A stretch of 64,000 bases of DNA, from assembly GCA_963665165.1 (NCBI GenBank), contig OY761989.1, positions 1,519,734-1,583,733 of the forward strand, given 5' to 3'. Below, piece by piece: positions 860 through 18,490 of this stretch. Position numbers and translations under genes: made by a program. This stretch comes from Arenicellales bacterium (lineage in GTDB: Bacteria; Pseudomonadota; Gammaproteobacteria; Arenicellales; Poriferihabitantaceae). Position 1 is the first letter of the stretch, and each line of letters begins with the position of its first letter. The notes below the pieces were generated by a model. It made no database searches and was not told the origin of the DNA. It saw nothing but the letters and a program-made list of their open reading frames with translations.

Positions 860-1633
860 CTACATATCCACTGGCGCGCCTTCAGGATCAAATTTGTCCT
901 GGCACTCATATCGAAGCTCATGATGCTGGTAACCTCTCTGATTTGAGATGATCCTCGTCTTGCCCCTGAAATGATCATCGCATTCGTGAGTGTGCCCATA
1001 AACCCAGAGCTCCGGCTCATGCTCGTCAATTATTGCCATCATATCGGTTGAGTTAAATGCAGGCATTAGCGGGCTTCCGGCATACTTCGTCACAGGGTTA
1101 ATCACCGGGGCGTGATGTGTCACAACAACGCGGTTTCCTGTGCGTGTGGTCTCGAACCATGCAAGAAGTTTTTTCACAAATTGATAGTGAAGTTCCGTGG
1201 TGTAATGCGGGGTAAGAGAAATCCCATTTCCCATTTTGATCAGCCTGAAATCATTCATTTGTGCCATGGCTTCAAGCATTGCTTTTTTAGATCCTCCTTG
1301 AAAATCAGTCCACATGGCGCCTCCAAAAAAGTGAACCCCATCAATGGTTACATCGCTATCCTGCAAAAAATGAACATTTGGATGAGCCCTGGAGAGCCAC
1401 TCCTGAAATTTTGCAGCCTCTCCATGCATATCAGTGTTGGTATAAAATTCATGATTGCCAGCGACAAAAATGACTGGTTTCTGCCATCCTTCAAGAAATC
1501 GGCTTAGCGGTTCGTAATCTCGGAAGGTAATGATATCGCCAGCCAATATCATGACGTCAGCATCACTGCTTTTTGGCGGCTTGAAACCAGAACCAAATTC
1601 AAGGTGCAAATCGCTGAATGTTATTATTCTCAT
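860..1633 (-). CDS. Calcineurin-like metallophosphoesterase
   Basis: 257-aa ORF with the ordered motifs FSDLH (DxH), AGD (GD), GNHE (GNH[DE]), VTHH and YGHTH (GHxH). Confidence 0.8.
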   Translation of the reverse strand: MRIITFSDLHLEFGSGFKPPKSSDADVMILAGDIITFRDYEPLSRFLEGWQKPVIFVAGNHEFYTNTDMHGEAAKFQEWLSRAHPNVHFLQDSDVTIDGVHFFGGAMWTDFQGGSKKAMLEAMAQMNDFRLIKMGNGISLTPHYTTELHYQFVKKLLAWFETTRTGNRVVVTHHAPVINPVTKYAGSPLMPAFNSTDMMAIIDEHEPELWVYGHTHECDDHFRGKTRIISNQRGYQHHELRYECQDKFDPEGAPVDM

Positions 1634-1639
1634 ACGTGG

Positions 1640-1950
1640 CCATTTTGTTTGTTTTTTCTACAGTAACGCTCTTACTCAAGAAGAGCAAACAGGATTCGAA
1701 CTCAAAGGATCCTACTGAGCCGAGATTTTCGGCCAGGCTCCATAGTTGAAGCGTGTCCATCAGCTTTTTGCCGGATGCACACCGCCTTTTACTTCGAACC
1801 AAAGTATTGAACCATAGCCGCTGGCTTGTCGTTCCGCCAGTTCTTTTTGCGGGAAGGAATCCAGTCCGGGGTAATCGACGCGCTCAGCCGTCGGATGGGT
1901 TTCGAGGAATACGGCGATTTTGTGTTGACATTGACCAGCTTTCACACGTA
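1640..1950 (-). pseudogene. Decayed fragment of the 3' part of a Cys/Met-metabolism PLP enzyme gene (paralogous copy of 7337-8557)
   Basis: Bases 1717-1920 align by hand to 7503-7707 with 17 differences in about 205 positions, including a 1-nt deletion near 1776-1779 that breaks the frame. Two minus-strand ORF pieces (1760-1981 and 1599-1802) carry FLETHP..YPGLDSFPQKELA.RQASG.GS.LWFEVKGG and ASGKKLMDTLQLWSLAENLGSV, matching the intact protein. Similarity fades on both sides. Confidence 0.85.
1717..1920. repeat. Left copy of a roughly 205-bp duplicated segment (partner 7503-7707)
   Basis: Hand alignment shows the first 59 nt identical and a further 34-nt identical block. I counted 17 differences in total, including one 1-nt indel. 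Confidence 0.9.
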
Positions 1951-1972
1951 TGTTGGCCGCTTGCGAGGAACA

Positions 1973-3169
1973 ATGAAACACACTTTAACCCTCTCGGTAC
2001 GCAGGCGTGATGGCATACCTGAGTATGACAAATACATGCTGGATGTGCAGAAGGGCAATGCGAAGCTAGCAGTTACTCAGGATATCATTAGCCATGCGGG
2101 GGCTCTTGGTCGGTCGGTCTCCTTCGCCCAATTGATCGCAACTTGGGCAAATACCTGCTCCGAGCGGCATCTCCTTACGAAGCTTCCCGCAAATGCCCAA
2201 ACCCAAATCAAGCACTTCGTCTCACGCCTGCATGGGTTAGTGGCTGCCTATTACGCAGACCGCGTCACTGCTTGCGATGGGGAGACTGACCTGAAGCAGG
2301 CACTCTTGGAGGCTGCTGCCCCCCGCATAAAAGCCATGGGCAAGCGTCAGTTTGCTAAAACAGCTAAAGGTGAACTAACAGAGTTGGTCTTTGTACATCG
2401 TGCCCGATATCAGTTCCACTCTGCCGTCTACCGTAACGGACCAAGTTCGTCCGAAATTATGGACCCCCAGAGGCACGGCGAGTTGATCGTCTCTCCACAC
2501 GAGATGAACGCCCTCATGCTCGAAGTATTGAAAAGTCAGAACTTTTTTAATAGCGATTTAGACCGCATTAAACCGCTGCTTAATGAGCGCAGTTGCCATC
2601 TCGGTACGCTTCTTCACGAAACGTTCCGGAACACAGCGGAGCACGCCTACTTGGACATGGATGGTAGGATACCTTCCAAGGGCTTACGGTGTATCCTGAT
2701 TGCTAGACGGAATATTAACCCAGACTCACTTGAGCAAACGGTTTTAATTTCCGCGAAGCACCCGAAACTCAGTCCCTACTTCCAGCAACTCCGAGATCGT
2801 GCAAATCTTGGTAAACGCAGACAGGTTCACATTCTTGAACTTTCTGTTCTTGATACCGGGCCTGGGTTGGCCGAGACCATCCGTTTTCGTATGGACGCTA
2901 GGATGAACGATTTAGATCTCGTTACCAAGTGCTTCCAAGACAGGGTCTCAAGTAAACGAGGCCTTAACTCTGGACTGGGGCTTGGCCGTATCCTCTACCA
3001 TATCGATAAACTCGGTGGATTCATACGGATCCGCACCTCCACTACCGAGGCATTCTTCTCATCGCATTCTCATACACCATCAGATAATCAACTGGTTCCA
3101 CATGTCGTAGGGGAGCTCCCGAAGGCTATTGGCACCGCCTTGACGATAGCAATTCCACTTGAGTTGTAG
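1973..3169 (+). CDS. GHKL/Bergerat-fold ATP-binding protein (histidine-kinase-like / SpoIIAB-like ATPase domain) with an uncharacterised N-terminal region of about 200 aa
   Basis: The C-terminal half carries an N-box-like LLHETFRNTAEHAY, a G1 box LSVLDTGPGLAE, a G2 box GLNSGLGLGRILYHIDKLGGFIRIRTS and a terminal GTALTIAIPLE. I chose the ATG at 1973 (GAGGA a few nt upstream) because the ORF-track start at 1826 is antisense to the pseudogene fragment. Confidence 0.7.
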   Translation: MKHTLTLSVRRRDGIPEYDKYMLDVQKGNAKLAVTQDIISHAGALGRSVSFAQLIATWANTCSERHLLTKLPANAQTQIKHFVSRLHGLVAAYYADRVTACDGETDLKQALLEAAAPRIKAMGKRQFAKTAKGELTELVFVHRARYQFHSAVYRNGPSSSEIMDPQRHGELIVSPHEMNALMLEVLKSQNFFNSDLDRIKPLLNERSCHLGTLLHETFRNTAEHAYLDMDGRIPSKGLRCILIARRNINPDSLEQTVLISAKHPKLSPYFQQLRDRANLGKRRQVHILELSVLDTGPGLAETIRFRMDARMNDLDLVTKCFQDRVSSKRGLNSGLGLGRILYHIDKLGGFIRIRTSTTEAFFSSHSHTPSDNQLVPHVVGELPKAIGTALTIAIPLEL

Positions 3170-3177
3170 TATTAGGA

Positions 3178-5361
3178 ATGTACTCTTTCCACAAGTTCAT
3201 CACTATTGACGAAACCCCGACCTCCGTCCAGGTCGTCTATCCGAATCAAGAAGACAGTGAAGATCATTTAGCAAGCAATCTCGAACAAATCGTGGAGACT
3301 TACAACCGCCGCTTGCCTCCCAGCCGTCTTCTGTTTGTTTGTCCCAAGGGTGTCGAAAAACGAGTTAAGCGGGTTTTCGATAATAAATGGAGCGAGTTCG
3401 AAGGACGTTTAGCGTCAACCACCCACGTCTCGATAACTTCCTACGATAAGCATGGTGTACTAGTCCCAAATCTAATTTTTCACCAAAAGTCTTGTGGAAT
3501 CGACTGGGTCATCAATGATAACTTTCTGGAAGATCTTGGCAAGCTCGCAGTCGGCAAGATTTTCGACGAGACCAAGACCATACTACACGCCCCTCATGGG
3601 TACGTGTTTCGCAAGCTATCGGGACGTGAGGAGAACATCTTCTTACGGGCCGGAAACATGCTCCGTATGCCTGGCTGTCTTATGGTCTTCAATCACTTGC
3701 TCCTGCGCAGGCTACCGTTTGGGTGTAAAGTCATCTACATCGACAGCTTCACGATTCTCTCCTTCGCGCTGGGCTTACAGTCGCTTATCAGTTACTTCCG
3801 TCGCACCGAACCGACAGTACCCGCTCTGGCTATCGAGAACATCCACTCCTATGAGATTGCTCCCGATTTCAGGATACCGAACGATACCAACTACCTTATC
3901 CTGATCTCAGCATCCACATCTGGGGGACTTGCCAGAAAGCTCGTCGATGAGAAACAGGCCGACCTGACCCGCATTGTGCATCTACTCGGTGTCGGACCAA
4001 CAGAGAAGACATTTAAGAATTCGTGTGTCTATTTCAGGCCCTCTACTGTGAAATCGGCCACGCACCAGCATAATGCCCCTATTGAGATCAGCACTGAGGA
4101 GTTTCTCGTTTCCCAAGGTTCTCCTAGACCGGTCCACATTACACGGGATCATGTTAACCGGGACGGTGCACGCGAACTCCACAAAACCTTTTACAAAGAG
4201 GCTCTAAAGTTTTGTGAACCCGGTCCGACGACTCAAGGCTCTTACTCCATGTTTTCTGTTTCATCCACATATAAAGCCGACTATGCGGATGAAGAACCTC
4301 CTCCTATTTACAAGTGGGTATGCGGTGCCCTGGTCCATGAAATCCCGGCGTCCGTATGTGTTCTGGCCCACCTCGGGGACCCCATGTCAACCTCGGTTGC
4401 TGCATGGCTTTGCAAGGCTCTCCGTGACCGATTCCCTACTATATCCCTTGACGACTTGAACTCTGAATCTGACGATACTTACACCCATGGTTCAATTGTT
4501 GTCGTCGCACATTTCGACCCGAATCTCGAAGGTTTGCGCGAAGCGAATATCGAGTTTAGGCGGATGCGTAATGTTCACCGTCACTATGTCCTTGGCTATG
4601 CTTTCCCATCATCCTTGGCCGAACACAGACGTCTCAAGAACGACCTATGTATGGGAGGCAGCGGCCCGCAATACGGGTGGTCAGAGTATCTGGTTTTACC
4701 GGTCGGCGCGGATCGAGTGCACGAATCACTTTCTCCACATAGCTATTCCATTGGTTTTGACGCGACCGGGTTGGGCCCCGATGAACTGGATTGTAATCTT
4801 ATTGGTGCCCTAAAAGAGCGAGCTACTCGCACCAGCATCCCCCATGATAGCCTCTTTCTCCCCCGTACCGATGGGACACCTCTTGTCCTGCGGCACGGTT
4901 CGGTGTTCTTTTCTGGCACGCAGACCGACAACGTCTCCCAGACTGCGGTGTACGCTATGGTGTCTGCTGCAATGCAGGCGGCGAGAGAGCCGGTGCCTGA
5001 TAATCGAAAAAGTGCAACACGACCGGGATTCGATGATAACCCATTTGTCCGAACCGTGCTGGATCCGAGCATGTTTGCACGCTTCAACGACGGCATTCTC
5101 CAGGCATCACTGCTAAGGTCGGCGCAGCGCTCAGAACTTGACTATTCCGCGAGTAAAGATCTCAGCCACCAATTTGCTTCAATTTGCCGGTCAGTTTTCG
5201 TCAGCCACAATGATGCCGTAGGTGATGCCGCTCTTGAGTTCATCCATGCGTTGGCAACGAAGAAGGTCTCACTGCGGGAAGAGGATATTAACTGGTTATG
5301 CGAGAAAATTCAGTCGATTCCAGAACTCAAAGTCGTCTACGATTGTTTTCGAGCTCAGTAG
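3178..5361 (+). CDS. Large uncharacterised protein (727 aa) with a degenerate type-I phosphoribosyltransferase-like nucleotide/PRPP-loop region
   Basis: It starts 8 nt after the upstream stop with AGGA before the ATG. NYLILISASTSGGLARKL resembles the PRTase signature (four hydrophobics, two acidic residues, then xxTGGT), but the acidic pair is replaced by SA. It is preceded by an HGYVFRKLSG...KVIYIDSFTILSFALGL layout. A second, weaker Rossmann-like unit lies around VCVLAHLGD...GSIVVVAHFDPNLEGL. The fold-level call is tentative. Confidence 0.45.
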   Translation: MYSFHKFITIDETPTSVQVVYPNQEDSEDHLASNLEQIVETYNRRLPPSRLLFVCPKGVEKRVKRVFDNKWSEFEGRLASTTHVSITSYDKHGVLVPNLIFHQKSCGIDWVINDNFLEDLGKLAVGKIFDETKTILHAPHGYVFRKLSGREENIFLRAGNMLRMPGCLMVFNHLLLRRLPFGCKVIYIDSFTILSFALGLQSLISYFRRTEPTVPALAIENIHSYEIAPDFRIPNDTNYLILISASTSGGLARKLVDEKQADLTRIVHLLGVGPTEKTFKNSCVYFRPSTVKSATHQHNAPIEISTEEFLVSQGSPRPVHITRDHVNRDGARELHKTFYKEALKFCEPGPTTQGSYSMFSVSSTYKADYADEEPPPIYKWVCGALVHEIPASVCVLAHLGDPMSTSVAAWLCKALRDRFPTISLDDLNSESDDTYTHGSIVVVAHFDPNLEGLREANIEFRRMRNVHRHYVLGYAFPSSLAEHRRLKNDLCMGGSGPQYGWSEYLVLPVGADRVHESLSPHSYSIGFDATGLGPDELDCNLIGALKERATRTSIPHDSLFLPRTDGTPLVLRHGSVFFSGTQTDNVSQTAVYAMVSAAMQAAREPVPDNRKSATRPGFDDNPFVRTVLDPSMFARFNDGILQASLLRSAQRSELDYSASKDLSHQFASICRSVFVSHNDAVGDAALEFIHALATKKVSLREEDINWLCEKIQSIPELKVVYDCFRAQ

Positions 5362-5535
5362 GTTTAAGTGTTGGAGAGGCGATTGAGATGTTCGTTGATA
5401 ACCAAACAGCATAATTGATTGTGCGACTCAATTACCCCTTCCAATAACAATCAAGACTATTCGCTGTTATAAGGTTTCTGGATGAGTTATCATGCGACAC
5501 ACTGATTTTGGCAGACATGCTCTGGGACTTGAAAA

Positions 5536-6231
5536 ATGGAAGCTCGTATAGTTCGACTTGATACATCTTACGAAGTGGCTTTTTCCCGTCCGGCTTTCAG
5601 TCGTATAGCATCGTTTTCACAAATCATAGAACCCATCTACGACGCTTTCAGCCAGGAAATACAGATTCCGTCAGATGCGATAAAACTGGAAAATGGAGAC
5701 ACTATCGCTACTGCTGGCGTCACCCTTACCTTGTTATCCGGATTACACTCCTTTGAGGCGAAATTGGACGGGTACAAGGCTCGCTTTCTTGACCTTCGGT
5801 CACCGGAGGCGATCAGTCAAGCCAAAAATTACGCAAAGTACTTTGAAACTGCCGTATGCAAATTCCTGACTGATGCAATTCCAGCAAATCGAAGACTGGT
5901 CACTTCGTGCTGGCTGACAGTAAACGGAGGTATGGAAGTAGCTGAAAACCTTATCCGAAGCCTTACCTGGCTTCCTGAAGTTCCCGACCCATTTGGAATT
6001 GGCGCGAACAGGGTACATTCACCAGTTAAATTCGATTGTTCAAATCGAGACGAGCGATGGAATGTCGGTATTTTCATGGATAGGTCAGCTTTACCAGGTA
6101 CGCATCTGTTTCTTGAGTTTTCAGCTAACTACAAGTCAGGCACACAGTATGATACTCTTGACAGAATGAGAGAACATGTATCCAGCGTTGTCAGATCGGT
6201 CATTGCCACACTGGACTTGGTAGTGGAGTAA
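5536..6231 (+). CDS. Hypothetical protein (231 aa), no recognisable motif
   Basis: A long ORF following a 174-bp intergenic gap, on the same strand as its neighbours. There are no obvious TM segments or catalytic motifs. Confidence 0.6.
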   Translation: MEARIVRLDTSYEVAFSRPAFSRIASFSQIIEPIYDAFSQEIQIPSDAIKLENGDTIATAGVTLTLLSGLHSFEAKLDGYKARFLDLRSPEAISQAKNYAKYFETAVCKFLTDAIPANRRLVTSCWLTVNGGMEVAENLIRSLTWLPEVPDPFGIGANRVHSPVKFDCSNRDERWNVGIFMDRSALPGTHLFLEFSANYKSGTQYDTLDRMREHVSSVVRSVIATLDLVVE

Positions 6232-6240
6232 CATTATTCG

Positions 6241-6867
6241 ATGCTCAATGCCTCCCCAACCTTCTCGTCTGCATCACGTGTGGTCCCACAAGTGACCGCT
6301 GGTCACCGACAACCACCGTTCAGCCTGCAACATGATTCCTTTGAAAATCACAACAAGGTTCGGCTTCTCGAACCTACTCAGCCAAATGCTTTAACGCAAC
6401 GGTCAGGGGGCGGGCAGGACGAAATTAGCCATGGATGGTTAAGTATGTTTCCTGATGAAACAACTATATCTCTTGCCGACCTTGACTTGGTCACTTATGT
6501 GACGACCAAAACGTCCTGGTTGGAAGAATCCTTGAACGAACTGGCTGCGTGTCCCACCGATGCGCTTGATGAGGGCCTGGAAGAGCCTTCGGAATCTGGA
6601 TTGAAGAAAGCAAAACATTTGTTACAGGATGTCTCCTGTTATGTGACTGAGCAACCAGATATCTACCCGATGGATGAGGGAGCTATCGCAATTGACTTTC
6701 GAACTCCTGAGGCTGACGCTGGTGTATTGTTCTTGATTGAACAGAATGGTTCCGGTGCACTTTTCCACCGTACCCGGAACTCGAAAGGAAGACTGCGAGT
6801 TGAAGATGCGGCAGACCTGCTCCGGGAAGGCGGTCTTCGGGAGCTTGAGAGGGTCGGTATCAGGTAG
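6241..6867 (+). CDS. Hypothetical protein (208 aa); the N-terminal part is low-complexity, so the true start may be the internal Met (MFPDETT)
   Basis: The ORF starts 9 nt after the previous stop, and its stop overlaps the next start (TAGTG). The acidic central region (DALDEGLEEPSESG) suggests a partner or antitoxin-like role, but this is only an inference. Confidence 0.55.
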   Translation: MLNASPTFSSASRVVPQVTAGHRQPPFSLQHDSFENHNKVRLLEPTQPNALTQRSGGGQDEISHGWLSMFPDETTISLADLDLVTYVTTKTSWLEESLNELAACPTDALDEGLEEPSESGLKKAKHLLQDVSCYVTEQPDIYPMDEGAIAIDFRTPEADAGVLFLIEQNGSGALFHRTRNSKGRLRVEDAADLLREGGLRELERVGIR

Positions 6868-7322
6868 TGAACGAGCGGCCGGAAAAGGAAGCGTCGGATC
6901 CCATAGGTAAAACGGACAAACTCGGAAGAGAAGAACGGTCTCAAAGTAGCGCTAAACGCGCTTTCCGCCGCCGACGGGCTCCGGTCTCCAGATTTAAGCC
7001 GCCCAGGGACAGTAATGAAATCTCGGTTAATCGTATGGGTTTGGCGTCGGCAGCCACAATGGCGGAACTGGGAAAGAGAAATGCGCTCCCTTCTGGGAAA
7101 TCTTTTTGGGGTTGGTACACCCTGACCGCAGGAGACATAGAGGCGGCTGGCTGTAGGGTCAAACCGTCACCTTCAGACGGTAATCCTTACCATGCGGATA
7201 TTCTGATTCCAGTGCCGTTTGACGCCGAAGAGCGGCGAGATGCTGTAATGGAGTATGCGAGAGATCTGGCGTATCACGCTACATTTCTTCCCTGGGGCGA
7301 GTGGACCAGTGACTTAACCTGA
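6867..7322 (+). CDS. Hypothetical protein (151 aa) with a strongly basic N-terminus (KRAFRRRRAPVSRFKPPR)
   Basis: A GTG start overlaps the upstream TAG by one base. The ORF ends 14 nt before the convergent PLP enzyme gene. I could not assign a family. Confidence 0.55.
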   Translation: MNERPEKEASDPIGKTDKLGREERSQSSAKRAFRRRRAPVSRFKPPRDSNEISVNRMGLASAATMAELGKRNALPSGKSFWGWYTLTAGDIEAAGCRVKPSPSDGNPYHADILIPVPFDAEERRDAVMEYARDLAYHATFLPWGEWTSDLT

Positions 7323-7336
7323 AACGCACAGCTTTT

Positions 7337-8557
7337 TCACAACCCGTCCAGGGCCTGCTTCAGGTCGATGATCAGGTCTTCAGCCGATTCGAGTCCGGCG
7401 GAGAGCCGCACCAGGCCATCGGTGATTCCCGCCGCCATACGTTCTTCGCGAGGCATGTCGGCGTGGGTCATGGTGACCGAGTGGGTGACCAGGGATTCGA
7501 CGGAGCCGAGATTTTCGGCCAGGCTCCATAGTTGAAGCGTGTCCATCAGCTTTTTGCCGGAAGCGACCCCGCCTTTTACTTCGAACCAGAGCATGGAACC
7601 ATGGCCGCTGGCCTGCCGGTCCGCCAGTTCTTTTTGCGGGAAGGAATCCAGTCCGGGGTAAGCGACGCGCTCAACCATCGGATGGGTTTCAAGGAACGCG
7701 GCAATTTGAAGCGCATTGGCGGATTGCGCCTCGAGCCGCGTGCTCATGGTTTTGCACCCTTGCAGGGTATAGAACGCAACCATCGGGGACATGTTTGACC
7801 CGAGGCAGTTTCTGACGAACTTGATGTCCTCCAGGTGGGCTTCGCTTTCAGCGGTAATTGATCCGCCCACGCTGATATTGTGTCCTTCCATGAATTTGGT
7901 CGTGCTGTGAAGCGTAATATCCGCCCCCAGTTCCAGCGGACGCTGGTAGTAGGGCGTCAGGAATGTGTTGTCCACCACATGGGGAATTCCATTCGCCCTG
8001 GCAATTTCAGAAATCGCGACGATGTCAGTCAGCTTCAAAGTGGGGTTGGCCGGGGTTTCGGTAAAAATCAACCGGGTATTGCCGCGGATCGCCTCCTTGA
8101 CGTTGACCGGTTCCGACGTATCCACGAAGCTGGCTTGGAGGTTGAACCGGTTGAGCACTTTGGTCGTTACCCGGTGAGTGCCGCCATAAACCACATCGGA
8201 CAATATGACATGATCCCCTGCATTCAAGAGTCCCATCAGGGTACAACTGGTCGCCGCCATGCCGGTGGCGAAGCAGGCGCTGCCAAAGCCGCCTTCGAGG
8301 GCGGTTATCCGGTTTTCCAGGGCGACTACCGTCGGATTGCCCGATCGACTGTACGAATAACCCTTTTCCATGTACGTGTCGACCGATTCCTGCACGTAGG
8401 TGGTTGATTGGTAGATCGGTGTCAGGATTGCACCGGTAACCGGATCCGGGCTAACACCTGCGTGCACTTCCCTGGTTTTGAAGTCGGGTTGTCTGTCTTC
8501 GCTCATGGGCTTACTTCTATTGGGTGGTGTTAATAACATAGGCGGCGATTCTATCAC
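7337..8557 (-). CDS. Cys/Met-metabolism PLP-dependent enzyme (cystathionine gamma-synthase / gamma-lyase / sulfhydrylase family)
   Basis: Contains YSRSGNPT and the PLP-lysine motif HSTTKFMEGH, with family-typical length. The ORF-track start is a GTG at 8557. In-frame ATGs at 8539 or 8506 (MSEDRQ) are alternatives. Confidence 0.85.
   Translation of the reverse strand: MIESPPMLLTPPNRSKPMSEDRQPDFKTREVHAGVSPDPVTGAILTPIYQSTTYVQESVDTYMEKGYSYSRSGNPTVVALENRITALEGGFGSACFATGMAATSCTLMGLLNAGDHVILSDVVYGGTHRVTTKVLNRFNLQASFVDTSEPVNVKEAIRGNTRLIFTETPANPTLKLTDIVAISEIARANGIPHVVDNTFLTPYYQRPLELGADITLHSTTKFMEGHNISVGGSITAESEAHLEDIKFVRNCLGSNMSPMVAFYTLQGCKTMSTRLEAQSANALQIAAFLETHPMVERVAYPGLDSFPQKELADRQASGHGSMLWFEVKGGVASGKKLMDTLQLWSLAENLGSVESLVTHSVTMTHADMPREERMAAGITDGLVRLSAGLESAEDLIIDLKQALDGL
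7503..7707. repeat. Right copy of the duplicated segment (partner 1717-1920), inside the intact gene
   Basis: Same hand alignment as the left copy. Confidence 0.9.
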
Positions 8558-8644
8558 CTGTTTTCCGAACCGTGCATCTTGATCAAGGATATTCAGTCAG
8601 GGATGCCCTGATTGACCCCGGTCCCGGCAAAAAGGCCCAAAAGG

Positions 8645-10219
8645 TCAATCCTGGTTTTGACGGTGGAAATAATCTGCAAGAAAGGAGTCGAAAGATAATG
8701 CGTCACTTTCTTCGATTTTCTGGCGGGTGATATGCGATTGCTGTGCCAGCGAAACGTATTTCCGGTTGATCTCCCCGGACAGCGGTTCCTTCTTGAACTT
8801 GCTTTCGGATATTTCAGAGGCTTGCATGGAAAACTCATAAAAGCTCAATCCCTGGTCAAACATCCGGTTGATGATTCGGGCGGAAGGAGTGGCATTGGAA
8901 TCAGCCACTTTGGTAAATTGTTTTTCGAGAGTGGCCGAGTAATCATTGTGTCCATTCACCTGGTCCAGTAACCGGGCAATCGGGGATATCCTGTTCAGCA
9001 ACGTGTTCATTTGTTCACGGGCGTTTACGCTACCCCCGGACAACTGGATGGTTGACTGTCTGTCCCTGCCGTACATGACCATGGTTTGCTGGTTTTTTCG
9101 GGTTATGGAAAATTCTTCCGGGGTCATCTCCGGACTGTCCTCAAACAGGCAATACAACAGGAACAGGTCAAAAAACCGGACACAATCCCCATGAATTCCA
9201 ATGGGTTCAAACGGATTCAGGTCAATGCTGCGAACTTCAACGTATTGCACTCCCTGGTTTTTCAATATGCTGGACGGGCTTTGTCCGGAAGGAGTGACCC
9301 GCTTGGGCCGGATTGAAGAATAGAATTCATTCTCGATCTGCAGGAGGTTCGCGTTCAACTGCTGATAACCATTCACGGTCTTCACCCCTGTCTTCTGGTA
9401 CTCGGGGTGAGGGGTCAGGATGGCGTGGCGTAACGATTTCACAAAATCGTGGACGCTGTTATAACTGATTTGAATGCCGGCTTGCGCTTCGTTGCTGTAC
9501 CCAAGCCCACTTAAACGTAATGACGTTGCATCGGGCGCAAAAAAACTATGTCCTTCCATCTCCTTGAGCTGGTGTTCCCGGCCTCTCAAAAAGGACCTGC
9601 ATACCGCAGGGGAGGCGCCGAACAGATAGGTCGCAATCCAGGAATTCCTGTGAAAATTCCGGATCAGGTCAAAATACTTTCCCGATGTGGCATCCTGAAG
9701 CTGTTGCCCATCATCCAGTCCAAGGTAATCCTTCCAGAACAGTTCGGGCATGGAAAAGTTGAAATGGATTCCGGAAACGGTCTGCATCAACGAGCCGTAC
9801 CGGTGGCTTAACCCCTGCCGGTAGACTTCCTTCATTTTCGCGATGTTGGAACTGCCGTACCTGGCAATCGGAATTTTTTCCTCGCTCTGTACGATGCAGG
9901 GCATACTGTTGACCCACAGCTTTTCTTCGCCGATATGCTGATAGGTGAAATGGTGGATGTCGTAGAGTTCCTTCAGGAGGTCATGGATATTGTCATGCAC
10001 GCCGGTGATGAATTCCAGCAGGGATTCGGAATAATCCGTCGTGATCGAGGGATGGGTCAGGCTTGATCCAATGGCCCGGGGATGGGGGGTTTGTGCCAGT
10101 GTCCCGTCCACAGCCACACGCAGGCTCTCTTTCTCCAGCCCTCTTTGCAGATGTTTCAAATGTTTGTCGATGGACCGGGATACCAGAAAATCCAGTGTCT
10201 TTTCTATTGTTGTTGTCAC
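8645..10219 (-). CDS. gshA: Glutamate-cysteine ligase
   Basis: 524 aa. LQRGLEKESLRVAVDGTLAQTPHPRAIGSSLTHPSITTDYSESLLEFITG closely parallels the N-terminus of proteobacterial GshA. Confidence 0.9.
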   Translation of the reverse strand: MTTTIEKTLDFLVSRSIDKHLKHLQRGLEKESLRVAVDGTLAQTPHPRAIGSSLTHPSITTDYSESLLEFITGVHDNIHDLLKELYDIHHFTYQHIGEEKLWVNSMPCIVQSEEKIPIARYGSSNIAKMKEVYRQGLSHRYGSLMQTVSGIHFNFSMPELFWKDYLGLDDGQQLQDATSGKYFDLIRNFHRNSWIATYLFGASPAVCRSFLRGREHQLKEMEGHSFFAPDATSLRLSGLGYSNEAQAGIQISYNSVHDFVKSLRHAILTPHPEYQKTGVKTVNGYQQLNANLLQIENEFYSSIRPKRVTPSGQSPSSILKNQGVQYVEVRSIDLNPFEPIGIHGDCVRFFDLFLLYCLFEDSPEMTPEEFSITRKNQQTMVMYGRDRQSTIQLSGGSVNAREQMNTLLNRISPIARLLDQVNGHNDYSATLEKQFTKVADSNATPSARIINRMFDQGLSFYEFSMQASEISESKFKKEPLSGEINRKYVSLAQQSHITRQKIEESDALSFDSFLADYFHRQNQD

Positions 10220-10308
10220 TTGGCGTTGATTCCTTTATGAATAAATGATTCATGTTGAGACCACGGTGAACCTGAATCAGGTGGCAGCATGGTAAAATCG
10301 GGAGCGCC

Positions 10309-11364
10309 ATGATTGCATCACCCTTACGTAAATCTTTCTCGGTTGCGCCCATGCTCGACATGACGGACCGGCACTGCCGTTCATTCTTGCGGCTCTTTTC
10401 ACGGAATTTCAGATTGTATACAGAAATGAAAGTGGCCGGTTCGATTATTTATGGAGACCGGGAGCGATTTCTCGGATTTGACAGCACAGAGCATCCTCTG
10501 GCGTTGCAGATTGGAGGGTGTGAACCGGACCAACTCGCGTTTTGCGCGAAACTGGCCGAACAATGGGGCTATGATGAGGTCAACCTCAACGTGGGGTGTC
10601 CGAGTGACCGGGTGCAAAATGCGCAATTCGGAGCCTGTTTGATGGCAAAGCCCGGGCTGGTCGCAAAATGTGTGGAATCCATGGTCAACGCTGTAGCCAT
10701 TCCGGTTTCGGTGAAAACCCGGATTGGAATCGATGACATGGACAGTTACCGGAACCTGTCGGATTTTGTCGGCCAGGTGGCTGGAGGCGGATGCGAAACC
10801 TTTATCATTCACGCGCGCAAAGCCTGGCTGAAAGGCTTGAGTCCGAAAGAAAACCGGACGATCCCTCCCCTCGACCATGCTGTGGTGTACAGGCTCAAGA
10901 CAGAATACCCGGAATTGAATATCATCATTAACGGCGGTATCTGCAACGCCGGCCAGATTGCGACTCATTTGCGATACACGGATGGCGTCATGATGGGCAG
11001 GGAGGTGTACCGGAACCCCTGGATATTGAGAGAGATCGACCAGCGTTTCTTCGGCAGCCAGGGCGGGCCGGTTTCGCAATTCGACGAATTCCTGCTGCGC
11101 GGCGACCTGATTCGCGCATTCTTTCCCTACATTGAAAACCAGCTCACCAAAGGCGCTTGTCTACGGCATATCACCAGGCATATACTGGGGCTTTATCACG
11201 GTCAACCCGGCGCCAGAATCTGGAGGCGGCACTTGTCCACGTACGGCCCCGGAAAAAACGCAGGGCTTGAAGTGGTTCAACAGGCGTTGAAACTGGTGGA
11301 AGATTCAGCACAAATCAATCCGGTGTTTGACCCGCGCCGAACGGGGTTAGCGGCCTATGCCTGA
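10309..11364 (+). CDS. dusA: tRNA dihydrouridine synthase A
   Basis: SVAPMLDMTDRHCR...LYTEM...NLNVGCPSDRV is typical of DusA. Confidence 0.9.
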   Translation: MIASPLRKSFSVAPMLDMTDRHCRSFLRLFSRNFRLYTEMKVAGSIIYGDRERFLGFDSTEHPLALQIGGCEPDQLAFCAKLAEQWGYDEVNLNVGCPSDRVQNAQFGACLMAKPGLVAKCVESMVNAVAIPVSVKTRIGIDDMDSYRNLSDFVGQVAGGGCETFIIHARKAWLKGLSPKENRTIPPLDHAVVYRLKTEYPELNIIINGGICNAGQIATHLRYTDGVMMGREVYRNPWILREIDQRFFGSQGGPVSQFDEFLLRGDLIRAFFPYIENQLTKGACLRHITRHILGLYHGQPGARIWRRHLSTYGPGKNAGLEVVQQALKLVEDSAQINPVFDPRRTGLAAYA

Positions 11365-12151
11365 CTATCCGGATTTCGAGACACTGCTGAGGGTGGTTCC
11401 TTTCCTCTCTATACTGGCCTTGCTGGTTGTCTGGGAGTGGACTCTCCCCAGGAGGGCAGAATCCGGACGTTTGTTGCGATGGCCGTCCAATTTCGGGATT
11501 TTCCTGATTGATGTGGTCATGCTGGTCGCGTTACCGGTCTCTGCGATAACGGCCGCCCTGGTCTCGATAGAATACAAATTCGGTCTGTTTTTCTGGATCG
11601 AGGCCCCATTCTGGCCGAAAGTCATTTTCTGCCTGATCGCGCTCGATCTGCTGGTTTACTGGCAACATCGATTGTTTCACCAGTTTCACGTATTGTGGCG
11701 TATTCATCGTATGCACCATACCGATACCGCTTTTGACGTCACCACTGCCCTGCGTTTTCATCCAATAGAAATATTCCTGTCCATACTGCTGAAAGCGGGC
11801 CTGATCATCCTGCTTGGAGCCCCGGTACTGGCTGTCATTCTGTTTGAAATCATATTGAACGGCGCCGCCATGTTCAATCACAGCAACATTCGCATTCCAC
11901 TATGGCTGGACCGGATCGTTCGCTGGGTGATCGTCACTCCCGACATGCACAGGGTGCACCATTCCATTCACAAAAAGGAATACAGTCATAATTTCGGGTT
12001 TTCCCTGTCTGTCTGGGACCGGCTTTTCCGCAGTTATACCCCTCAACCTGAAGACGGGCATCAGACCATGGTCATCGGGCTGGATGTATTCAACGACCCC
12101 GAAGAGGCCAGGCTCGATAAACTGATCAGCCAGCCGTTCAGGAACGCATAG
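11357..12151 (+). CDS. Fatty acid hydroxylase / sterol desaturase family membrane protein
   Basis: Histidine boxes HRLFH, HRMHH and HRVHH sit within a multi-TM protein. Confidence 0.8.
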   Translation: MPDYPDFETLLRVVPFLSILALLVVWEWTLPRRAESGRLLRWPSNFGIFLIDVVMLVALPVSAITAALVSIEYKFGLFFWIEAPFWPKVIFCLIALDLLVYWQHRLFHQFHVLWRIHRMHHTDTAFDVTTALRFHPIEIFLSILLKAGLIILLGAPVLAVILFEIILNGAAMFNHSNIRIPLWLDRIVRWVIVTPDMHRVHHSIHKKEYSHNFGFSLSVWDRLFRSYTPQPEDGHQTMVIGLDVFNDPEEARLDKLISQPFRNA

Positions 12152-12163
12152 TTACGCCAGAAA

Positions 12164-12427
12164 ATGCCGATTCATCCGGAATTGCTCAAGGCGCTGGTCT
12201 GTCCCGTTACCAAACTGCCTGTTTCCATGCTGGATTCGAACAGGCTGGAAAAACTGAATCGCCTGATCGATGACGGCTCGGTCGAAACCCTGGGAGGCCA
12301 CCCCGTTACCGAACCTCTGACAGAAGCGCTGATCACCCGAAACAATAAAACCATTTACCGCATCAAGCAGGGGATACCGGTCATGCTGGAGGATCAGGCC
12401 ATGGCCGCGGAACAGATTGCGGGATAA
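12164..12427 (+). CDS. Trm112 / UPF0434 family small protein
   Basis: 87 aa with LLKALVCPVTK near the N-terminus and GIPVML near the C-terminus. Confidence 0.7.
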   Translation: MPIHPELLKALVCPVTKLPVSMLDSNRLEKLNRLIDDGSVETLGGHPVTEPLTEALITRNNKTIYRIKQGIPVMLEDQAMAAEQIAG

Positions 12428-12516
12428 CCAGAATTGCGATCCGTATCCTGACGGTTGCCAAATCCTGAAATTATCCGTAAAGTAAAATCGGAATTATACA
12501 AAACGAGAGTCGAATC

Positions 12517-14451
12517 ATGTCCAAAGATAAAGTCTATGAGGTAAACCGTGATATTGCCGCCAAGGCCCATGTAACAGACGCGCAATATCTGGAGATGTAT
12601 CAGAAATCCATCGACGACCCGGAGAGTTTCTGGGCGGAGCAGGCAGAAAATTTTGTGGACTGGTTCAGCCCCTGGGATCATGTGATGTCGGTCGATTATC
12701 ACTCGGCGCATATCGAATGGTTCACTGGCGGGAAACTCAATGCCTGCTACAACTGTGTTGACCGGCACTTGCCTACCCGTGGAGACCAGGTTGCGATTAT
12801 TTGGGAAGGGGACGATCCGAATGTTGATATGTCAATTACTTACAATCATCTATTCGAGCTGGTCTGCAGGTTTTCGAATGTCCTGAAATCCCGCGGTGTG
12901 CACAAGGGGGACCGGGTTTCAATCTACATGCCGATGATCCCGGAAGCCGCGGTGGCGATGCTGGCCTGCGCGAGAATCGGCGCCATCCACTCGATTGTTT
13001 TCGGCGGCTTCTCTCCGGACGCGCTGCGTGACCGCATCCTGGATTCGGATTGCCAGGTGGTCATTACCGCGGACGAGGGGCCGCGCGGCGGTAAAAACGT
13101 ACCGCTCAAGGAAAATGTGGAAAAGGCGCTTGAAGGATGCCCGAACGTGCATACGACCATTGTCGTCCGGCGAACCGGCAATCCGGTCACGGCCAGCCCC
13201 GAGCGGGACGTGTGGTACCACGAGGCCATGAATGACGCTCCCACTGAGTGTCCGCCGGAGCGCATGGACGCGGAAGATCCATTATTCATTCTGTATACCT
13301 CGGGTTCCACCGGAAAACCCAAGGGAGTTCTCCATACCACGGGCGGCTACCAGCTTTATGCCGCCATGACCCATAAGTACGTATTCGACTACCATGACGG
13401 GGATGTCTACTGGTGTACCGCCGATGTGGGCTGGGTGACGGGGCACAGCTATATTATCTATGGTCCCCTGGCCAATGGCGCGATCACCATGATGTTCGAA
13501 GGGGTGCCTGTTTATCCGGACGCGGGACGATTCTGGCAAATTGTCGACAAACACAAGGTCAATATTTTCTATACCGCGCCTACTGCCCTGAGAGCCCTGA
13601 TGGCGCAAGGGGACAGTTGGGTCAAGCGTTCGAGCCGAAGCAGTCTGCGGATATTGGGTACGGTCGGCGAACCGATCAATCCTGAAGCATGGGAGTGGTA
13701 CTATCATGTGGTCGGGGAGGGCAAATGCCCGATTGCCGATACCTGGTGGCAAACGGAAACCGGAGGTATCCTGATCGCTCCGCTGCCCGGCGCGACACGC
13801 CTGAAACCCGGCTCGGCCACCCGTCCCTTTTTCGGTATCCAGCCGGCCCTGGTGGATGCGGACGGCGCTGAACAGGAAGGAGCGACTTCCGGGGACCTGA
13901 TCATCAAGCAATCCTGGCCCGGACAGATGCGCACGGTATACGGCGATCATCAGCGCTTTATAGACACTTATTTCAAAACCTATCCCGGCAACTATTTCAC
14001 CGGAGACGGCGCGCGGCGGGATGAAGATGGATACTGGTGGATTACCGGGCGCGTGGACGATGTGATCAACGTTTCGGGGCATAGAATGGGGACCGCTGAA
14101 GTCGAGAGCGCCCTGGTGCTGCATGAAGACGTGGCCGAGGCCGCGGTCGTCGGATATCCCCACGATATCAAGGGGCAGGGCATTTATGCCTATGTGACCC
14201 TGATGGTGGGCACGGAACCTTCGGACGAACTGCATACGGAATTGACCGCCATGGTCAACAAGGAGATCGGACCGATTGCAAAGCCCGATGTCATCCAGTG
14301 GGCGCCCGGCCTGCCGAAAACCCGGTCCGGTAAAATCATGCGTCGTATCCTGAGGAAAATTGCCGCAGAAGAATTTGAAGACCTGGGGGATACCAGTACC
14401 CTGGCCGATCCTGCCGTAGTCGATGACCTGATCGGGAACAGGGCAGGGTAG
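12517..14451 (+). CDS. acs: Acetyl-CoA synthetase
   Basis: 644 aa with the AMP-binding motif [19 protein letters not shown] and a C-terminal SGKIMRR. Confidence 0.93.
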
Positions 14452-17509: not shown

Positions 17510-18490
17510 TTATTGGTTGTTTCTGTGATTTTCAATATTTTTCAAATGTGCGATTCGGTTTTGTGCTTCGATGAATATACGGGCAATTTCAGGATGTTTT
17601 TTCTTGATCTGGATCTCCAGTTGTGTGATGGTTTTCTCCACTTCACCCGCACTGATATAGTCGTAGTCGTGAAAGTCCAGACTGATGTTCAAAAGGACAT
17701 CTTCCGGTCCCATGTGCATGGTCAGGATTTCATTGATACTCAGAATCTCCGGTTTCCTGCTCACAATTTCCTGAATACTGGAAATTACTTCACGACTGGC
17801 CGCTTCACCAATCAGTAACCCCTTGGTTTCGTACGCCAGCAGCATGGCCGTGAAACTCAGGATCAGTCCAATCACGATGGATGCCAATGCGTCATAGACC
17901 GGATCGCCTGTCCATTGGGTCAGCAACAGGCCGCCAAAAGCGGCTATCAGGCCCAGCATTGCGGCGCTGTCTTCAAACAGCACAGTGAAAACCGTTGGGT
18001 CCTTGCTGACCTGCATGGCTTTCAGGTATCCAAGCTTGCCTTTCCTCTTGCGAAATTCCCTGAATGCGACAAGCCACGTAAATCCTTCGAATACCATGGC
18101 AAATCCCAGAACTATATAATTGATATATATATGTTTTACTTCCTTTGGATGATTGAACTTACTGAACCCTTCATACAGTGAAACCCCGGCTCCAATTGCA
18201 AAAATCAGGATTGCGACCACGAAGGTCCAGAAATACAATTCCATTCCGTATCCGAACGGATGACGTTCGTCGGCAGGTCGGGATGACCTCCTGATCCCCC
18301 AGAGCAGCAAGCCCTGGTTGCCCGTATCGACAATGGAATGCACGGCTTCGCTCAACATGGCGGAGCTGCCGGTAATCGCGGAAGCGAACATTTTGGTAAT
18401 GGCGATCAAACCATTACCGATGATGGCCGCTATGACCACCCATCTTGAGCTGGACTTGGGTTTCAACGCCTGGATTGCATCTGGATGCAA
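17510..18490 (-). CDS. Cation diffusion facilitator family transporter
   Basis: Six TM segments followed by a cytoplasmic domain, with a HSIVDTGNQ-type metal site. Confidence 0.8.
   Translation of the reverse strand: MHPDAIQALKPKSSSRWVVIAAIIGNGLIAITKMFASAITGSSAMLSEAVHSIVDTGNQGLLLWGIRRSSRPADERHPFGYGMELYFWTFVVAILIFAIGAGVSLYEGFSKFNHPKEVKHIYINYIVLGFAMVFEGFTWLVAFREFRKRKGKLGYLKAMQVSKDPTVFTVLFEDSAAMLGLIAAFGGLLLTQWTGDPVYDALASIVIGLILSFTAMLLAYETKGLLIGEAASREVISSIQEIVSRKPEILSINEILTMHMGPEDVLLNISLDFHDYDYISAGEVEKTITQLEIQIKKKHPEIARIFIEAQNRIAHLKNIENHRNNQ

Follow-up and report, generated by a model that had tools for sequence, protein, structure and literature searches.

Two mobile gene modules with putative defence- or addiction-like roles in a variable genomic slot of an Arenicellales bacterium

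Gene content of the region and its flanking repeat

The analysed window is a stretch of 64,000 nucleotides from an Arenicellales bacterium (GenBank assembly GCA_963665165.1, contig OY761989.1, positions 1,519,734 to 1,583,733 of the forward strand). ORF reading of the window yielded five ORFs on the plus strand at exactly the positions given in a preliminary description of this DNA: gene 1 (1973-3169, 398 aa), gene 2 (3178-5361, 727 aa), gene 3 (5536-6231, 231 aa), gene 4 (6241-6867, 208 aa) and gene 5 (6867-7322, 151 aa). The spacing is likewise as first described, with gaps of 8 nt between genes 1 and 2 and 9 nt between genes 3 and 4 and a 1-nt overlap of genes 4 and 5 in a TAGTG stop/start junction; a spacer of 174 nt lies between genes 2 and 3. 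Since each of them has full-length homologues in other genomes, all five are evidently real genes. A longer reading of gene 1 from a TTG at 1826 is improbable, as it would cross a fragment of a PLP-enzyme gene; it is also disfavoured by the relatives of gene 1, whose ~390-400 aa begin to align at the ATG of 1973. Just upstream of gene 1 lies a sigma-70-like promoter match on the plus strand (1925-1954; TTGACA, 18 nt, TATGTT), which may serve as a weak lead for this gene; the total of promoter-like sites in the region is not above shuffled expectation. Nucleotide similarity to other genomes delimits genes 3-5 as a mobile three-gene module on the plus strand (5463-7335), hereafter module B, and genes 1 and 2 are referred to as module A.

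To the right, the five genes are bordered by an intact PLP-enzyme gene of Cys/Met metabolism on the minus strand (7337-8557; Pfam Cys_Met_Meta_PP, 1.7e-137), a core gene found in colinear arrangement with gshA and dusA in relatives, which forms the right border of the hotspot. The left flank contains, all on the minus strand, a PLP-enzyme pseudogene fragment (1707-1920) at the left edge of the PDC-M65-type module A, a metallophosphoesterase gene (860-1633; Pfam Metallophos, 4.9e-14) and a partial AAA_14/DUF4143 ATPase gene (1-750; Pfam AAA_14, 7.7e-25; DUF4143, 5.7e-09), which six-frame reading shows as an ORF continuing past the left end of the window. The pseudogene fragment and the PLP-enzyme gene share a direct repeat of ~214 nt with ~90% identity (1707-1920 and 7493-7707). 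This repeat had been taken for a duplicated 3' end of the gene; the duplication is real, but it comprises an internal, 3'-proximal piece (about codons 283-355 of 406) and not the very 3' end. The right copy is part of the intact gene and lies 156 nt from the stop codon. When aligned together with the intact gene and the orthologue of the relative L005, the left copy proves to be cut short at either end and to contain a 1-nt deletion, and it is therefore a pseudogene fragment; it is 82-86% identical to the PLP genes of relatives.

The three-gene module

The impression that genes 3-5 match nothing known was borne out, as none of them belongs to an annotated family in Pfam, NCBIfam, PADLOC or the PDB. 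Gene 5 is the most conserved member of the trio, with ~609 representative clusters and an identity of 85% in L089, compared with 60% for gene 4. Its residues R21, F43, G82 and H109 are invariant. Sequence searches of Pfam, NCBIfam, PADLOC and the PDB gave no match for gene 5, and its AF2 model (pLDDT 89.2) retrieved no structural relative with Foldseek (best E-value 0.41 against the PDB and 0.02 against BFVD). The N-terminal half of gene 4 is variable; its C-terminal domain of ~120 aa is conserved and forms 732 clusters, mostly of stand-alone proteins of 124-140 aa. Gene 4 lacks Pfam and PDB matches and shows a weak match (1e-5) to the C-terminus of PADLOC PDC-M32A. Relatives of gene 3 were detected by HMM in 25 of 79 gene-5 loci, exclusively in the subfamily nearest to the window, and in distant gene-5 loci an unrelated family of ~236 aa takes its place. 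Gene 3 has no PDB match, a partial and weak Pfam match to HpaP and a weak PHROGs match (E-value 0.19).

In most of the 79 loci the C-terminal domain of gene 4 is encoded directly upstream of the gene-5 relative, and at the junction 24 loci show a 1-nt overlap, 24 others a 4-nt overlap and 25 a gap of <30 nt. These two elements evidently constitute the conserved core of module B and are predicted to be translationally coupled. Elsewhere, the neighbours of the trio include PIN/Phd, HsdR, AbiEii, HipA, Fic and HEPN genes. We propose that module B may function as a toxin-antitoxin (TA)-like addiction or abortive-infection module, in which gene 5 would be the effector or putative toxin, with its invariant Arg and His and a hitherto unseen fold, gene 4 its fast-evolving neutraliser (putative antitoxin or partner) and gene 3 a swappable third component; which of the partners would be toxic, if either, is a guess. 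Like type II TA modules, genes 4 and 5 are small, adjacent and co-directional, with tight or overlapping junctions across loci and a more conserved downstream protein, and the pair is mobile, decays readily and is found beside TA and defence genes. Unlike these modules, genes 3-5 match no known toxin or antitoxin family or fold, a third gene (gene 3 or a member of the unrelated 236-aa family) is present, and the toxicity of the present pair is putative.

Alternatively, genes 3-5 or the core of genes 4 and 5 could be small regulators or could serve an anti-defence function or a role in symbiosis that has spread among sponge-associated bacteria. Module B contains no detectable toxin, antitoxin or DNA-binding domain, and the gene-5 loci found stem largely from lineages of many phyla with names marking sponge association, which could reflect a habitat-specific function. 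We nevertheless regard such a role as rather unlikely, given the TA-typical layout of two small coupled genes with the more conserved one downstream, the mobility of the module and its decay in relatives, the TA, restriction-modification (RM) and Abi genes in its neighbourhood, and the occurrence of the gene-4 domain in the PADLOC candidate PDC-M32A.

The PDC-M65-type gene pair

Gene 1 encodes an N-terminal domain of ~200 aa followed by a C-terminal GHKL (Bergerat-fold) ATP-binding domain with the N box (E-x-x-x-N), G1 box (D-x-G-x-G) and G2 box (G-x-G) following one another as expected. Among 41 relatives, N220, D294, G296, G298, G334 and G336 are invariant and E216 is nearly so, which upholds the fold proposed earlier. 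The protein encoded in the window has no Pfam HATPase_c match at E<=1; HATPase_c matches eight of the 41 relatives (best 1.9e-4), HATPase_c_2 matches two of them, and a search of the PDB with a gene-1 profile retrieved nothing. Based on the motifs and the weak matches in relatives, gene 1 is predicted to encode a GHKL ATPase or kinase-like protein. It does not qualify as a two-component sensor histidine kinase, as the family has neither an invariant His N-terminal to the ATPase domain nor a HisKA match; gene 2 gave no Response_reg (receiver-domain) match either, and the pair is not a two-component phosphorelay.

Gene 2 encodes an orotate phosphoribosyltransferase (OPRTase)-like fold domain at about residues 115-290, together with another alpha/beta domain and a C-terminus that is helical and conserved. 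Its AF2 model (pLDDT 90.4) retrieved OPRTases, HP1257, PurR, APRT and HGPRT as top Foldseek matches, with a probability of ~1.0, E-values of 5e-5 to 3e-2 and target TM-scores of ~0.5, up to 0.59. Type I PRTases carry a PRPP motif (PROSITE-type) of four hydrophobic and two acidic residues followed by a T/S-x-G-x-T loop. The corresponding loop of gene 2 is degenerate (ILISASTSGG): I243-S244 stand in place of the acidic pair, S244 and A245 are invariant and the phosphate-binding T-S-G-G loop is kept, whereas a PRPP-binding motif with the acidic pair is present in none of 62 gene-2 relatives. The degenerate type I PRTase-like loop noticed in the preliminary description is thus corroborated by both model and family. 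A Pfam search of gene 2 gave no Pribosyltran match, and a sub-profile of residues 108-300 found no PRTase in the PDB. The relation to PRTases appears to hold at the level of the fold only, and enzymatic PRTase activity is doubtful because the relation is confined to the fold, a sequence match is lacking and the acidic residues of the catalytic pair are replaced.

Genes 1 and 2 match the PADLOC models PDLC04764 (PDC-M65A; E-value 2.4e-21, residues 18-361 of 398) and PDLC04765 (PDC-M65B; 8.7e-61), respectively, and we assign them to the candidate system PDC-M65. The pair agrees with this system in the match to both HMMs, the order of A before B, the shared strand and the protein sizes, and nothing in it is structurally different; relatives of gene 1 lie directly upstream of relatives of gene 2 on the same strand in ~65 of 84 loci. 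PDC-M65 (CAS_00195, FAM_00905>>FAM_02964) is one of 145 computational-only candidates; it was assigned by guilt-by-embedding after being found embedded in defence systems (bioRxiv 10.1101/2024.01.29.577857, Payne et al.). The GHKL and degenerate OPRTase-like assignments do not appear in the searched portions of the text and supplements of that study. The earlier claim that no catalogued system has the composition of this region is not supported: genes 1 and 2 fall within a catalogued candidate, while the trio of genes 3-5 is uncatalogued and in no annotated family.

Several established defence systems employ PRTase effectors, namely type III retrons, ShosT, PsyrT and OpnC (PMC12746101; PMC12961424; bioRxiv 10.1101/2025.09.30.679545), and in ShosT the D-D pair is needed for PRPP binding and the D331A/D332A exchange abolishes toxicity (PMC12961424). 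The pair described here resembles ShosTA, PsyrTA, Retron-Eco11 (type III) and Ophion (OpnC) in having a PRTase-fold protein in a small defence-island module, plausibly linked to nucleotide or PRPP metabolism. Gene 2 was nonetheless rejected as a PRTase of the ShosT, PsyrT or retron type, as it matches only PDC-M65B among the PADLOC models and lacks the D-D pair. At 727 aa with extra domains it also differs from these toxins, and its partner is a predicted GHKL ATPase instead of a DprA-like antitoxin, a reverse transcriptase or a radical-SAM enzyme. Detocs couples a histidine-kinase-type (GHKL/HATPase) ATP-binding module to a partner protein in the setting of defence islands. A GHKL/HATPase-type module is likewise coupled to a second protein in AbrB/AbrC of Ambrosia (bioRxiv 10.1101/2025.09.30.679545). 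Genes 1 and 2 share this arrangement and context with both systems, but differ from them in the missing His, HisKA and receiver-domain features noted above, and no Detocs model matched genes 1 and 2.

Defence genes recur in the genomic surroundings of PDC-M65 pairs. In ~31 loci, the two nearest ORFs on each side include GajA, Old, AriA, mad2/3/8, HsdR/M/S and integrases; pairs elsewhere adjoin Gabija, OLD, type I RM, MADS, PARIS-like and Qat genes, and on the Pseudomonas aeruginosa plasmid pBJ86 the pair adjoins QatC/QatD. Some pairs lie among ordinary genes, for example on a Pantoea plasmid. In module A, the PRTase-like domain would serve as sensor or effector by binding a nucleotide or a phosphoribosyl compound, and the GHKL partner would use ATP to switch the PRTase-like protein, which might result in growth arrest or a disturbance of the nucleotide pool during phage infection. 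This scheme would parallel that of the PRTase-type defence toxins already known, to which module A is not homologous. A defence- or conflict-type module, as suggested in the preliminary description, is plausible in view of the PDC-M65A and PDC-M65B matches and the defence-gene neighbours of both pair and trio; we infer the biochemical and defence functions of modules A and B from these features.

Genes 1 and 2 might instead represent a niche regulatory or metabolic pair that is not immune and is linked to defence only through mobile DNA, for example an ATP-dependent regulator with a nucleotide- or PRPP-binding protein. Such a role would be compatible with the resemblance of the PRTase-like domain, devoid of the acidic pair, to non-catalytic regulators (PurR) as well as to enzymes, with the ordinary context of loci such as that on the Pantoea plasmid, and with the status of PDC-M65 as a computational candidate. 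We consider it unlikely, because the pair is patchily distributed over unrelated phyla, bona fide defence genes recur among its immediate neighbours, PDC-M65 was first found embedded in defence systems, and genes 1 and 2 are absent from close relatives of this genome.

Modularity of the island and its genomic slot

The pair and the trio recur separately in other genomes. In L089, the trio stands alone at another site with unrelated flanks, matching 5463-6344 and 6456-7335 with 83-85% nucleotide identity, and the similarity begins exactly at 5463. In L178, similarity to the window begins at 5455. L005 and L178 contain trio versions without genes 1 and 2 at the same locus as in the window; module B is decayed or partly deleted in these two relatives, L005 lacking exactly 5463-6456. 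The region 1921-7335 is accordingly best described as two unrelated mobile modules stacked side by side, module A at 1921-5462 and module B at 5463-7335. That the genes are decaying, pseudogenised remnants without current function is very improbable: a PLP pseudogene fragment adjoins them and the trio is broken in L178 and L005, but the five ORFs of the window are full length for their families and their proteins keep all family-invariant residues. The view of the preliminary description that the five genes form one cassette, functioning and acquired as a unit, is barely credible, for although they are adjacent on one strand between the repeat copies with only the 174-nt spacer between the two units, the five genes do not recur together elsewhere (genes 3-5 in 0 of 84 loci of genes 1 and 2, genes 1 and 2 in 0 of 79 gene-5 loci), the trio occurs alone in L005, L178 and L089 with a sharp boundary at 5455-5463, and the PDC-M65 pair is found alone in many phyla and on plasmids.

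Seven close relatives (L173-L179) encode a PLP protein 94-98% identical to that of the window and keep the dusA-gshA-PLP synteny, and none of them contains genes 1 and 2. In L179, just 41 nt separate the PLP gene from tRNA-Ser(GCU), which represents an empty site; in the other close relatives, this interval holds 0.8-6.7 kb of different cargo, including hipBA-like genes, decayed trio remnants and an element with a tRNA-Ser copy on each side. The genes are therefore not conserved at this position, and horizontal acquisition of accessory DNA, as proposed at the outset, is substantiated by their absence, the empty site and the kept synteny. The tRNA gene is convergent with the PLP gene in relatives, and the proposed insertion at the 3' end of a housekeeping gene gives way to a variable slot that starts at the 3' end of the PLP gene and extends to tRNA-Ser(GCU). 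As duplicated tRNA-Ser copies flank an element at the slot in one relative, the tRNA is more likely to be the integration target than the PLP gene. A slot beside tRNA-Ser(GCU) with different cargo in each relative, and with duplicated tRNA copies around an element in one of them, resembles tRNA-linked hotspots and defence islands; the window's part of the island differs from these in having neither a tRNA nor an integrase and in containing a stray internal fragment of the PLP gene.

We favour, as somewhat more probable than its alternatives combined, the reading that a GHKL and OPRTase-fold PDC-M65 pair (module A) and a TA-like trio (module B) accreted in the slot between the PLP gene and tRNA-Ser(GCU), as accessory cargo with a defence or addiction flavour that is made up of a known candidate and an uncatalogued family. 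More tentatively, we think it possible that genes 4 and 5 represent an undescribed TA or abortive-infection family and that PDC-M65 could be a new defence mechanism. If so, PDC-M65 would consist of a GHKL ATPase controlling a catalytically altered OPRTase-fold protein, and gene 5 would provide an effector fold of ~140-150 aa that lacks a solved or viral-predicted relative and is built around the invariant Arg21 and His109. The family of genes 4 and 5 would then be horizontally spread over at least ten bacterial phyla, mostly among sponge-associated lineages, and its third component would be exchangeable, with gene 3 serving in one clade and the unrelated 236-aa protein in another.

No tRNA was found in the window, so the island extends beyond its left edge, with tRNA-Ser(GCU) placed beyond the left end. 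The five genes had been regarded as the only accessory cargo in the window; the left flank, however, also holds the metallophosphoesterase gene and the partial AAA_14/DUF4143 ATPase gene, neither of which occurs at the orthologous locus in close relatives. The ATPase gene belongs to the same variable region, which is evidently not contained wholly within the window. The metallophosphoesterase gene is probably accessory as well; the best relatives of its product, 54-65% identical, are encoded in genomes of Alphaproteobacteria and Thermodesulfobacteriota and in Ca. Tethybacter MAGs.

Gene content and partitioning of the region

The region encodes five plus-strand ORFs, gene 1 (1973-3169), gene 2 (3178-5361), gene 3 (5536-6231), gene 4 (6241-6867) and gene 5 (6867-7322), with gaps of 8 nt between genes 1 and 2 and 9 nt between genes 3 and 4, and a 1-nt overlap (TAGTG) between genes 4 and 5. 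All coordinates, gaps and the overlap given in a preliminary description, which was made from the sequence alone, were reproduced. A metallophosphoesterase gene (860-1633, minus strand) is located on the left flank, following a partial AAA_14/DUF4143 gene at the left end of the window. The right flank is formed by a Cys/Met-metabolism PLP-enzyme gene (PLP gene; 7337-8557, minus strand; Pfam, 1.7e-137), beyond which gshA-like and dusA-like genes are encoded. The region is not distinct from its surroundings in base composition.

The preliminary description interpreted the five genes as a single cassette, which is refuted by their distribution: genes 3, 4 and 5 were found beside gene-2 relatives in none of 84 loci, and genes 1 and 2 were absent from all 79 gene-5 loci. 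Genes 1 and 2 (module A) represent an already catalogued candidate system, PDC-M65, and genes 3-5 (module B) an uncatalogued family without structural relative. None of the five proteins yielded a usable match in Pfam, NCBIfam or PHROGs, and PDB sequence searches with genes 1 and 2 alone, with profiles of all five families and with the phosphoribosyltransferase (PRTase) sub-region of gene 2 returned chance-level matches only. Genes 2 and 3 are separated by a spacer with a 7-bp inverted repeat (TAATTGA-N9-TCAATTA, 5412-5434), and the 59 nt around it (5404-5462) are conserved in the metagenomic contig L005; this repeat could be an operator or could have arisen by chance. No Rfam family was detected at the gathering threshold in the 64-kb window (1-64000).

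Genes 1 and 2 as a PDC-M65 pair

Genes 1 and 2 match the PADLOC models PDC-M65A (2.4e-21) and PDC-M65B (8.7e-61), respectively. PDC-M65 (cassette CAS_00195, for which a count of 40 is given) is one of 145 untested phage-defence candidates that were curated from gene cassettes located within BREX, DISARM or type I restriction-modification (RM) systems (Payne et al., bioRxiv 10.1101/2024.01.29.577857), and no paper mentioning it by name was found in a full-text literature search. The protein collection contains 119 full-length gene-2 relatives, all ~730 amino acids long and none annotated. A single-sequence scan of species genomes for close gene-2 relatives found none, and an alignment query against one genome per species identified 261 loci in Proteobacteria, Bacteroidota, Verrucomicrobiota, Planctomycetota, Cyanobacteria and other phyla. 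A gene-1 relative of ~390-400 amino acids is encoded directly upstream of the gene-2 relative in ~65 of 84 loci. Furthermore, 12 plasmids carry relatives, which are always annotated as hypothetical proteins; no gene-2 relatives were found in phage genomes. Maribacter aquimaris encodes two separate PDC-M65-like pairs on two contigs of one genome (L030, L032). On a 1.4-Mb metagenomic contig (L002:6800-7990), an intact gene-1 relative (tblastn, 55% identity over residues 1-398) is not called as a gene in the source annotation; such missed calls could make PDC-M65 pairs seem incomplete in automated surveys.

The genomic neighborhood of PDC-M65 pairs was sampled as 124 ORFs located within two positions of the pairs at ~31 loci. 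Pfam identified SMC_N/AAA_21/AAA_23/AAA_15 ATPases, type I RM subunits, OLD-type TOPRIM proteins, Eco57I and integrases among these neighbors, and PADLOC identified GajA, Old, AriA, PtuA, mad2/3/8 and HEC-02A. Metagenomic neighbors include SIR2, a dCTP-deaminase-family (DCD) gene, Mrr, a resolvase and IS elements. The pair adjoins QatC/QatD on the Pseudomonas aeruginosa plasmid pBJ86 and is surrounded by ordinary genes on a Pantoea plasmid. At the level of context, the reading of the region as accessory and conflict-related, as put forward in the preliminary description, is supported.

Among 41 gene-1 relatives, N220, D294, G296, G298, G334 and G336 are invariant and E216 is nearly so; judged by sequence, these residues make up the N, G1 and G2 boxes of a Bergerat-type (GHKL) ATP-binding fold. 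Pfam HATPase_c is matched by eight of the 41 relatives (best 1.9e-4) and not by the window's gene 1 itself. As the family lacks both an invariant histidine upstream of the ATPase domain and a HisKA match, gene 1 does not encode a classical histidine kinase.

The confident AlphaFold model of gene 2 (pLDDT 90.4, pTM 0.86) has its best structural matches in the PDB among type I PRTases, including the orotate PRTases (OPRTases) 4rv4, 2aee and 2wns as well as HP1257, APRT, HGPRT and PurR (probability ~1.0, E-values 5e-5 to 3e-2, target TM-score up to 0.59). A sequence profile of gene-2 residues 108-300 retrieved no PRTase from the PDB, and the predicted kinship is at the level of the fold only. The PRPP-binding motif is present in none of 62 gene-2 relatives: I243-S244 replace the acidic pair, S244 and A245 are invariant, and the T-S-G-G phosphate loop is retained. 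Gene 2 has three further invariant serines, S148, S190 and S224. Because the PRTase fold and the phosphate loop are kept while the PRPP motif is lost, the earlier designation of a degenerate type-I PRTase-like loop was accurate. In contrast to gene 2, the defence PRTase toxin ShosT possesses the equivalent acidic pair, D331/D332, on which its toxicity depends (PMC12961424).

By analogy with PRTase effectors of defence systems (retron III, ShosT/PsyrT and OpnC), the OPRTase-fold domain of module A probably binds a phosphoribosyl ligand. As the acidic pair is lost, gene 2 would more likely function as a sensor or altered enzyme than as a canonical PRTase, and its GHKL partner, gene 1, may supply ATP-dependent switching or phosphorylation. 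If a defence role of PDC-M65 is confirmed, a GHKL ATPase would be tied to a degenerate PRTase fold, a combination that differs from the PRTase effectors of ShosT, PsyrT, retrons and Ophion, and the theme of nucleotide-metabolism-based immunity would be widened.

Genes 3 to 5

Gene 5 has 70 close relatives, and an exhaustive profile search retrieved 609 representative clusters, all of which are stand-alone proteins of ~80-185 amino acids; none were found on plasmids. In species genomes, the gene-5 family counts 98 loci. Most of a set of 79 species-genome loci encode the gene-4 C-terminal domain directly upstream of gene 5, with the gene-4 stop and gene-5 start overlapping by 1 nt (24/79) or 4 nt (24/79) or separated by <30 nt (25/79). 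Gene 3 is present in 25 of these loci. More distant gene-5 loci contain an unrelated ~236-amino-acid family in place of gene 3, or encode gene 4 as a short protein of 124-140 amino acids, the predominant form among the 732 clusters of the gene-4 domain family. The 236-amino-acid family, which has no Pfam match, is located directly upstream of the gene-4-like gene at 21 loci and at three more in a related cluster (L128, L131, L132, L134, L136-L139, L146 and others); hhalign detected no relationship to gene 3 (probability 0.14%).

Genes 3-5 also lack a usable match in the PDB. The PADLOC comparison proposed in the preliminary description, which identified genes 1 and 2, yielded only a weak match (1e-5) for module B, between the conserved C-terminal domain of gene 4 (residues 91-169) and the C-terminus of PDC-M32A; this domain is therefore common to another untested defence candidate. 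The type III secretion protein family HpaP (Pfam) is partially matched by 13 of 24 gene-3 relatives (best E-value 3e-6). This identity was set aside since the match covers only ~28 residues and the window protein (residues 170-197) scores 14.5 bits, below the cutoff of 23.8.

Gene 5 is the most conserved of the three genes, with 85% identity to its homolog in L089, a Ca. Poriferihabitaceae MAG; the corresponding values of genes 3 and 4 are 76% and 60%, respectively. R21, F43, G82 and H109 are invariant among 92 diverse members, and G20, S53, D/N55, R56, W83, N106 and A110 are nearly so. Foldseek searches with the confident AlphaFold model of gene 5 (pLDDT 89.2) returned nothing significant in the PDB (best E-value 0.41) or BFVD (best E-value 0.02, an unnamed protein). 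The ADP-ribosyltransferase lead AvrPphF/HopF was too weak (TM 0.38, E-value 1.8), and motif resemblance to RES-domain or HEPN toxins was supported by neither profile nor fold.

Module B may be built around a toxin-antitoxin-like pair, in which gene 5 would be the effector and gene 4 its neutralizer, joined by a third component that varies. None of the libraries searched annotates the gene 4-gene 5 family, which comprises hundreds of clusters. If it is shown to be a toxin-antitoxin or abortive-infection module, it would represent a new effector fold and would also help to trace gene flow among the genomes of sponge symbionts. According to record titles, the family occurs in MAGs of ~ten phyla (loci L089-L167), and many hosts are, judging by their names, presumably sponge-associated (Ca. 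Poriferihabitaceae, Poribacteria, Ca. Porisulfidus and sponge-microbiome bins). This distribution suggests habitat-wide horizontal spread.

The locus as a variable hotspot

The preliminary description regarded a duplicated gene 3' end as an insertion scar bracketing the cassette. The direct repeat is real (1707-1920 and 7493-7707; ~214 nt, ~90% identity by repeat search and alignment), yet the duplicated segment is internal to the PLP gene and merely 3'-proximal. Since the left copy is truncated at both ends and contains a 1-nt deletion, it is a pseudogene fragment. Campbell-type integration via the repeated segment was rejected because the intact gene has both repeat flanks and the left copy neither.

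The metallophosphoesterase gene failed as a marker of the orthologous empty site because it is itself accessory, and the PLP gene was used instead. Seven close relatives (L173-L179) share 94-98% identity in the PLP protein, retain the dusA-gshA-PLP synteny and have, past the 3' end of the PLP gene, a tRNA-Ser(GCU) gene in convergent orientation. The intervening slot is variable: it is empty in L179, where 41 nt separate the PLP stop codon and the tRNA, spans 0.8 kb in L177, and contains 1.4 kb of decayed remnants of genes 3-5 in L178, ~1.7 kb of hipBA-like sequence in L173-L175 and 6.7 kb with two tRNA-Ser copies in L176. Genes 1 and 2, the metallophosphoesterase and the AAA_14 gene are present in none of the seven. 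The locus thereby offers a clean natural comparison of a slot that is empty, differently filled or decaying in close relatives.

Two further sequences carry parts of the region. L005 is colinear with window positions 6457-14000 (82.6% identity), lacks 5463-6456 and encodes HigB, HipA, Fic and HEPN_Toprim_N where the window encodes PDC-M65. In L089, genes 3-5 (5463-7335, 83-85%) occupy a different genomic site, flanked by a PIN/Phd pair on one side and a type I HsdR gene on the other.

On the downstream side of the PLP gene in L176, two tRNA-Ser(GCU) copies (12944-13031 and 17865-17955) bracket a segment of ~4.8 kb. Two tRNA copies around an element are the classic signature of integration at a tRNA 3' end, and this duplication therefore suggests that the hotspot has its attachment site in the tRNA and not in the PLP gene. 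As no tRNA gene was detected in the 64-kb window and its left end truncates the AAA_14/DUF4143 gene, the island extends past the window. Moving outward from the PLP gene, genes 3-5 come first, followed by PDC-M65, the PLP fragment, the metallophosphoesterase gene and the AAA_14 gene; such an order is consistent with stepwise accretion beside the tRNA, from which we infer that genes 3-5 are the oldest residents. A hipBA-like module (~82-97% identity to L174) is located in the PLP-to-tRNA-Ser slot of L173, L174, L175 and L176 and in L005 (3117-4701), where it is annotated as HipA and an HTH protein.
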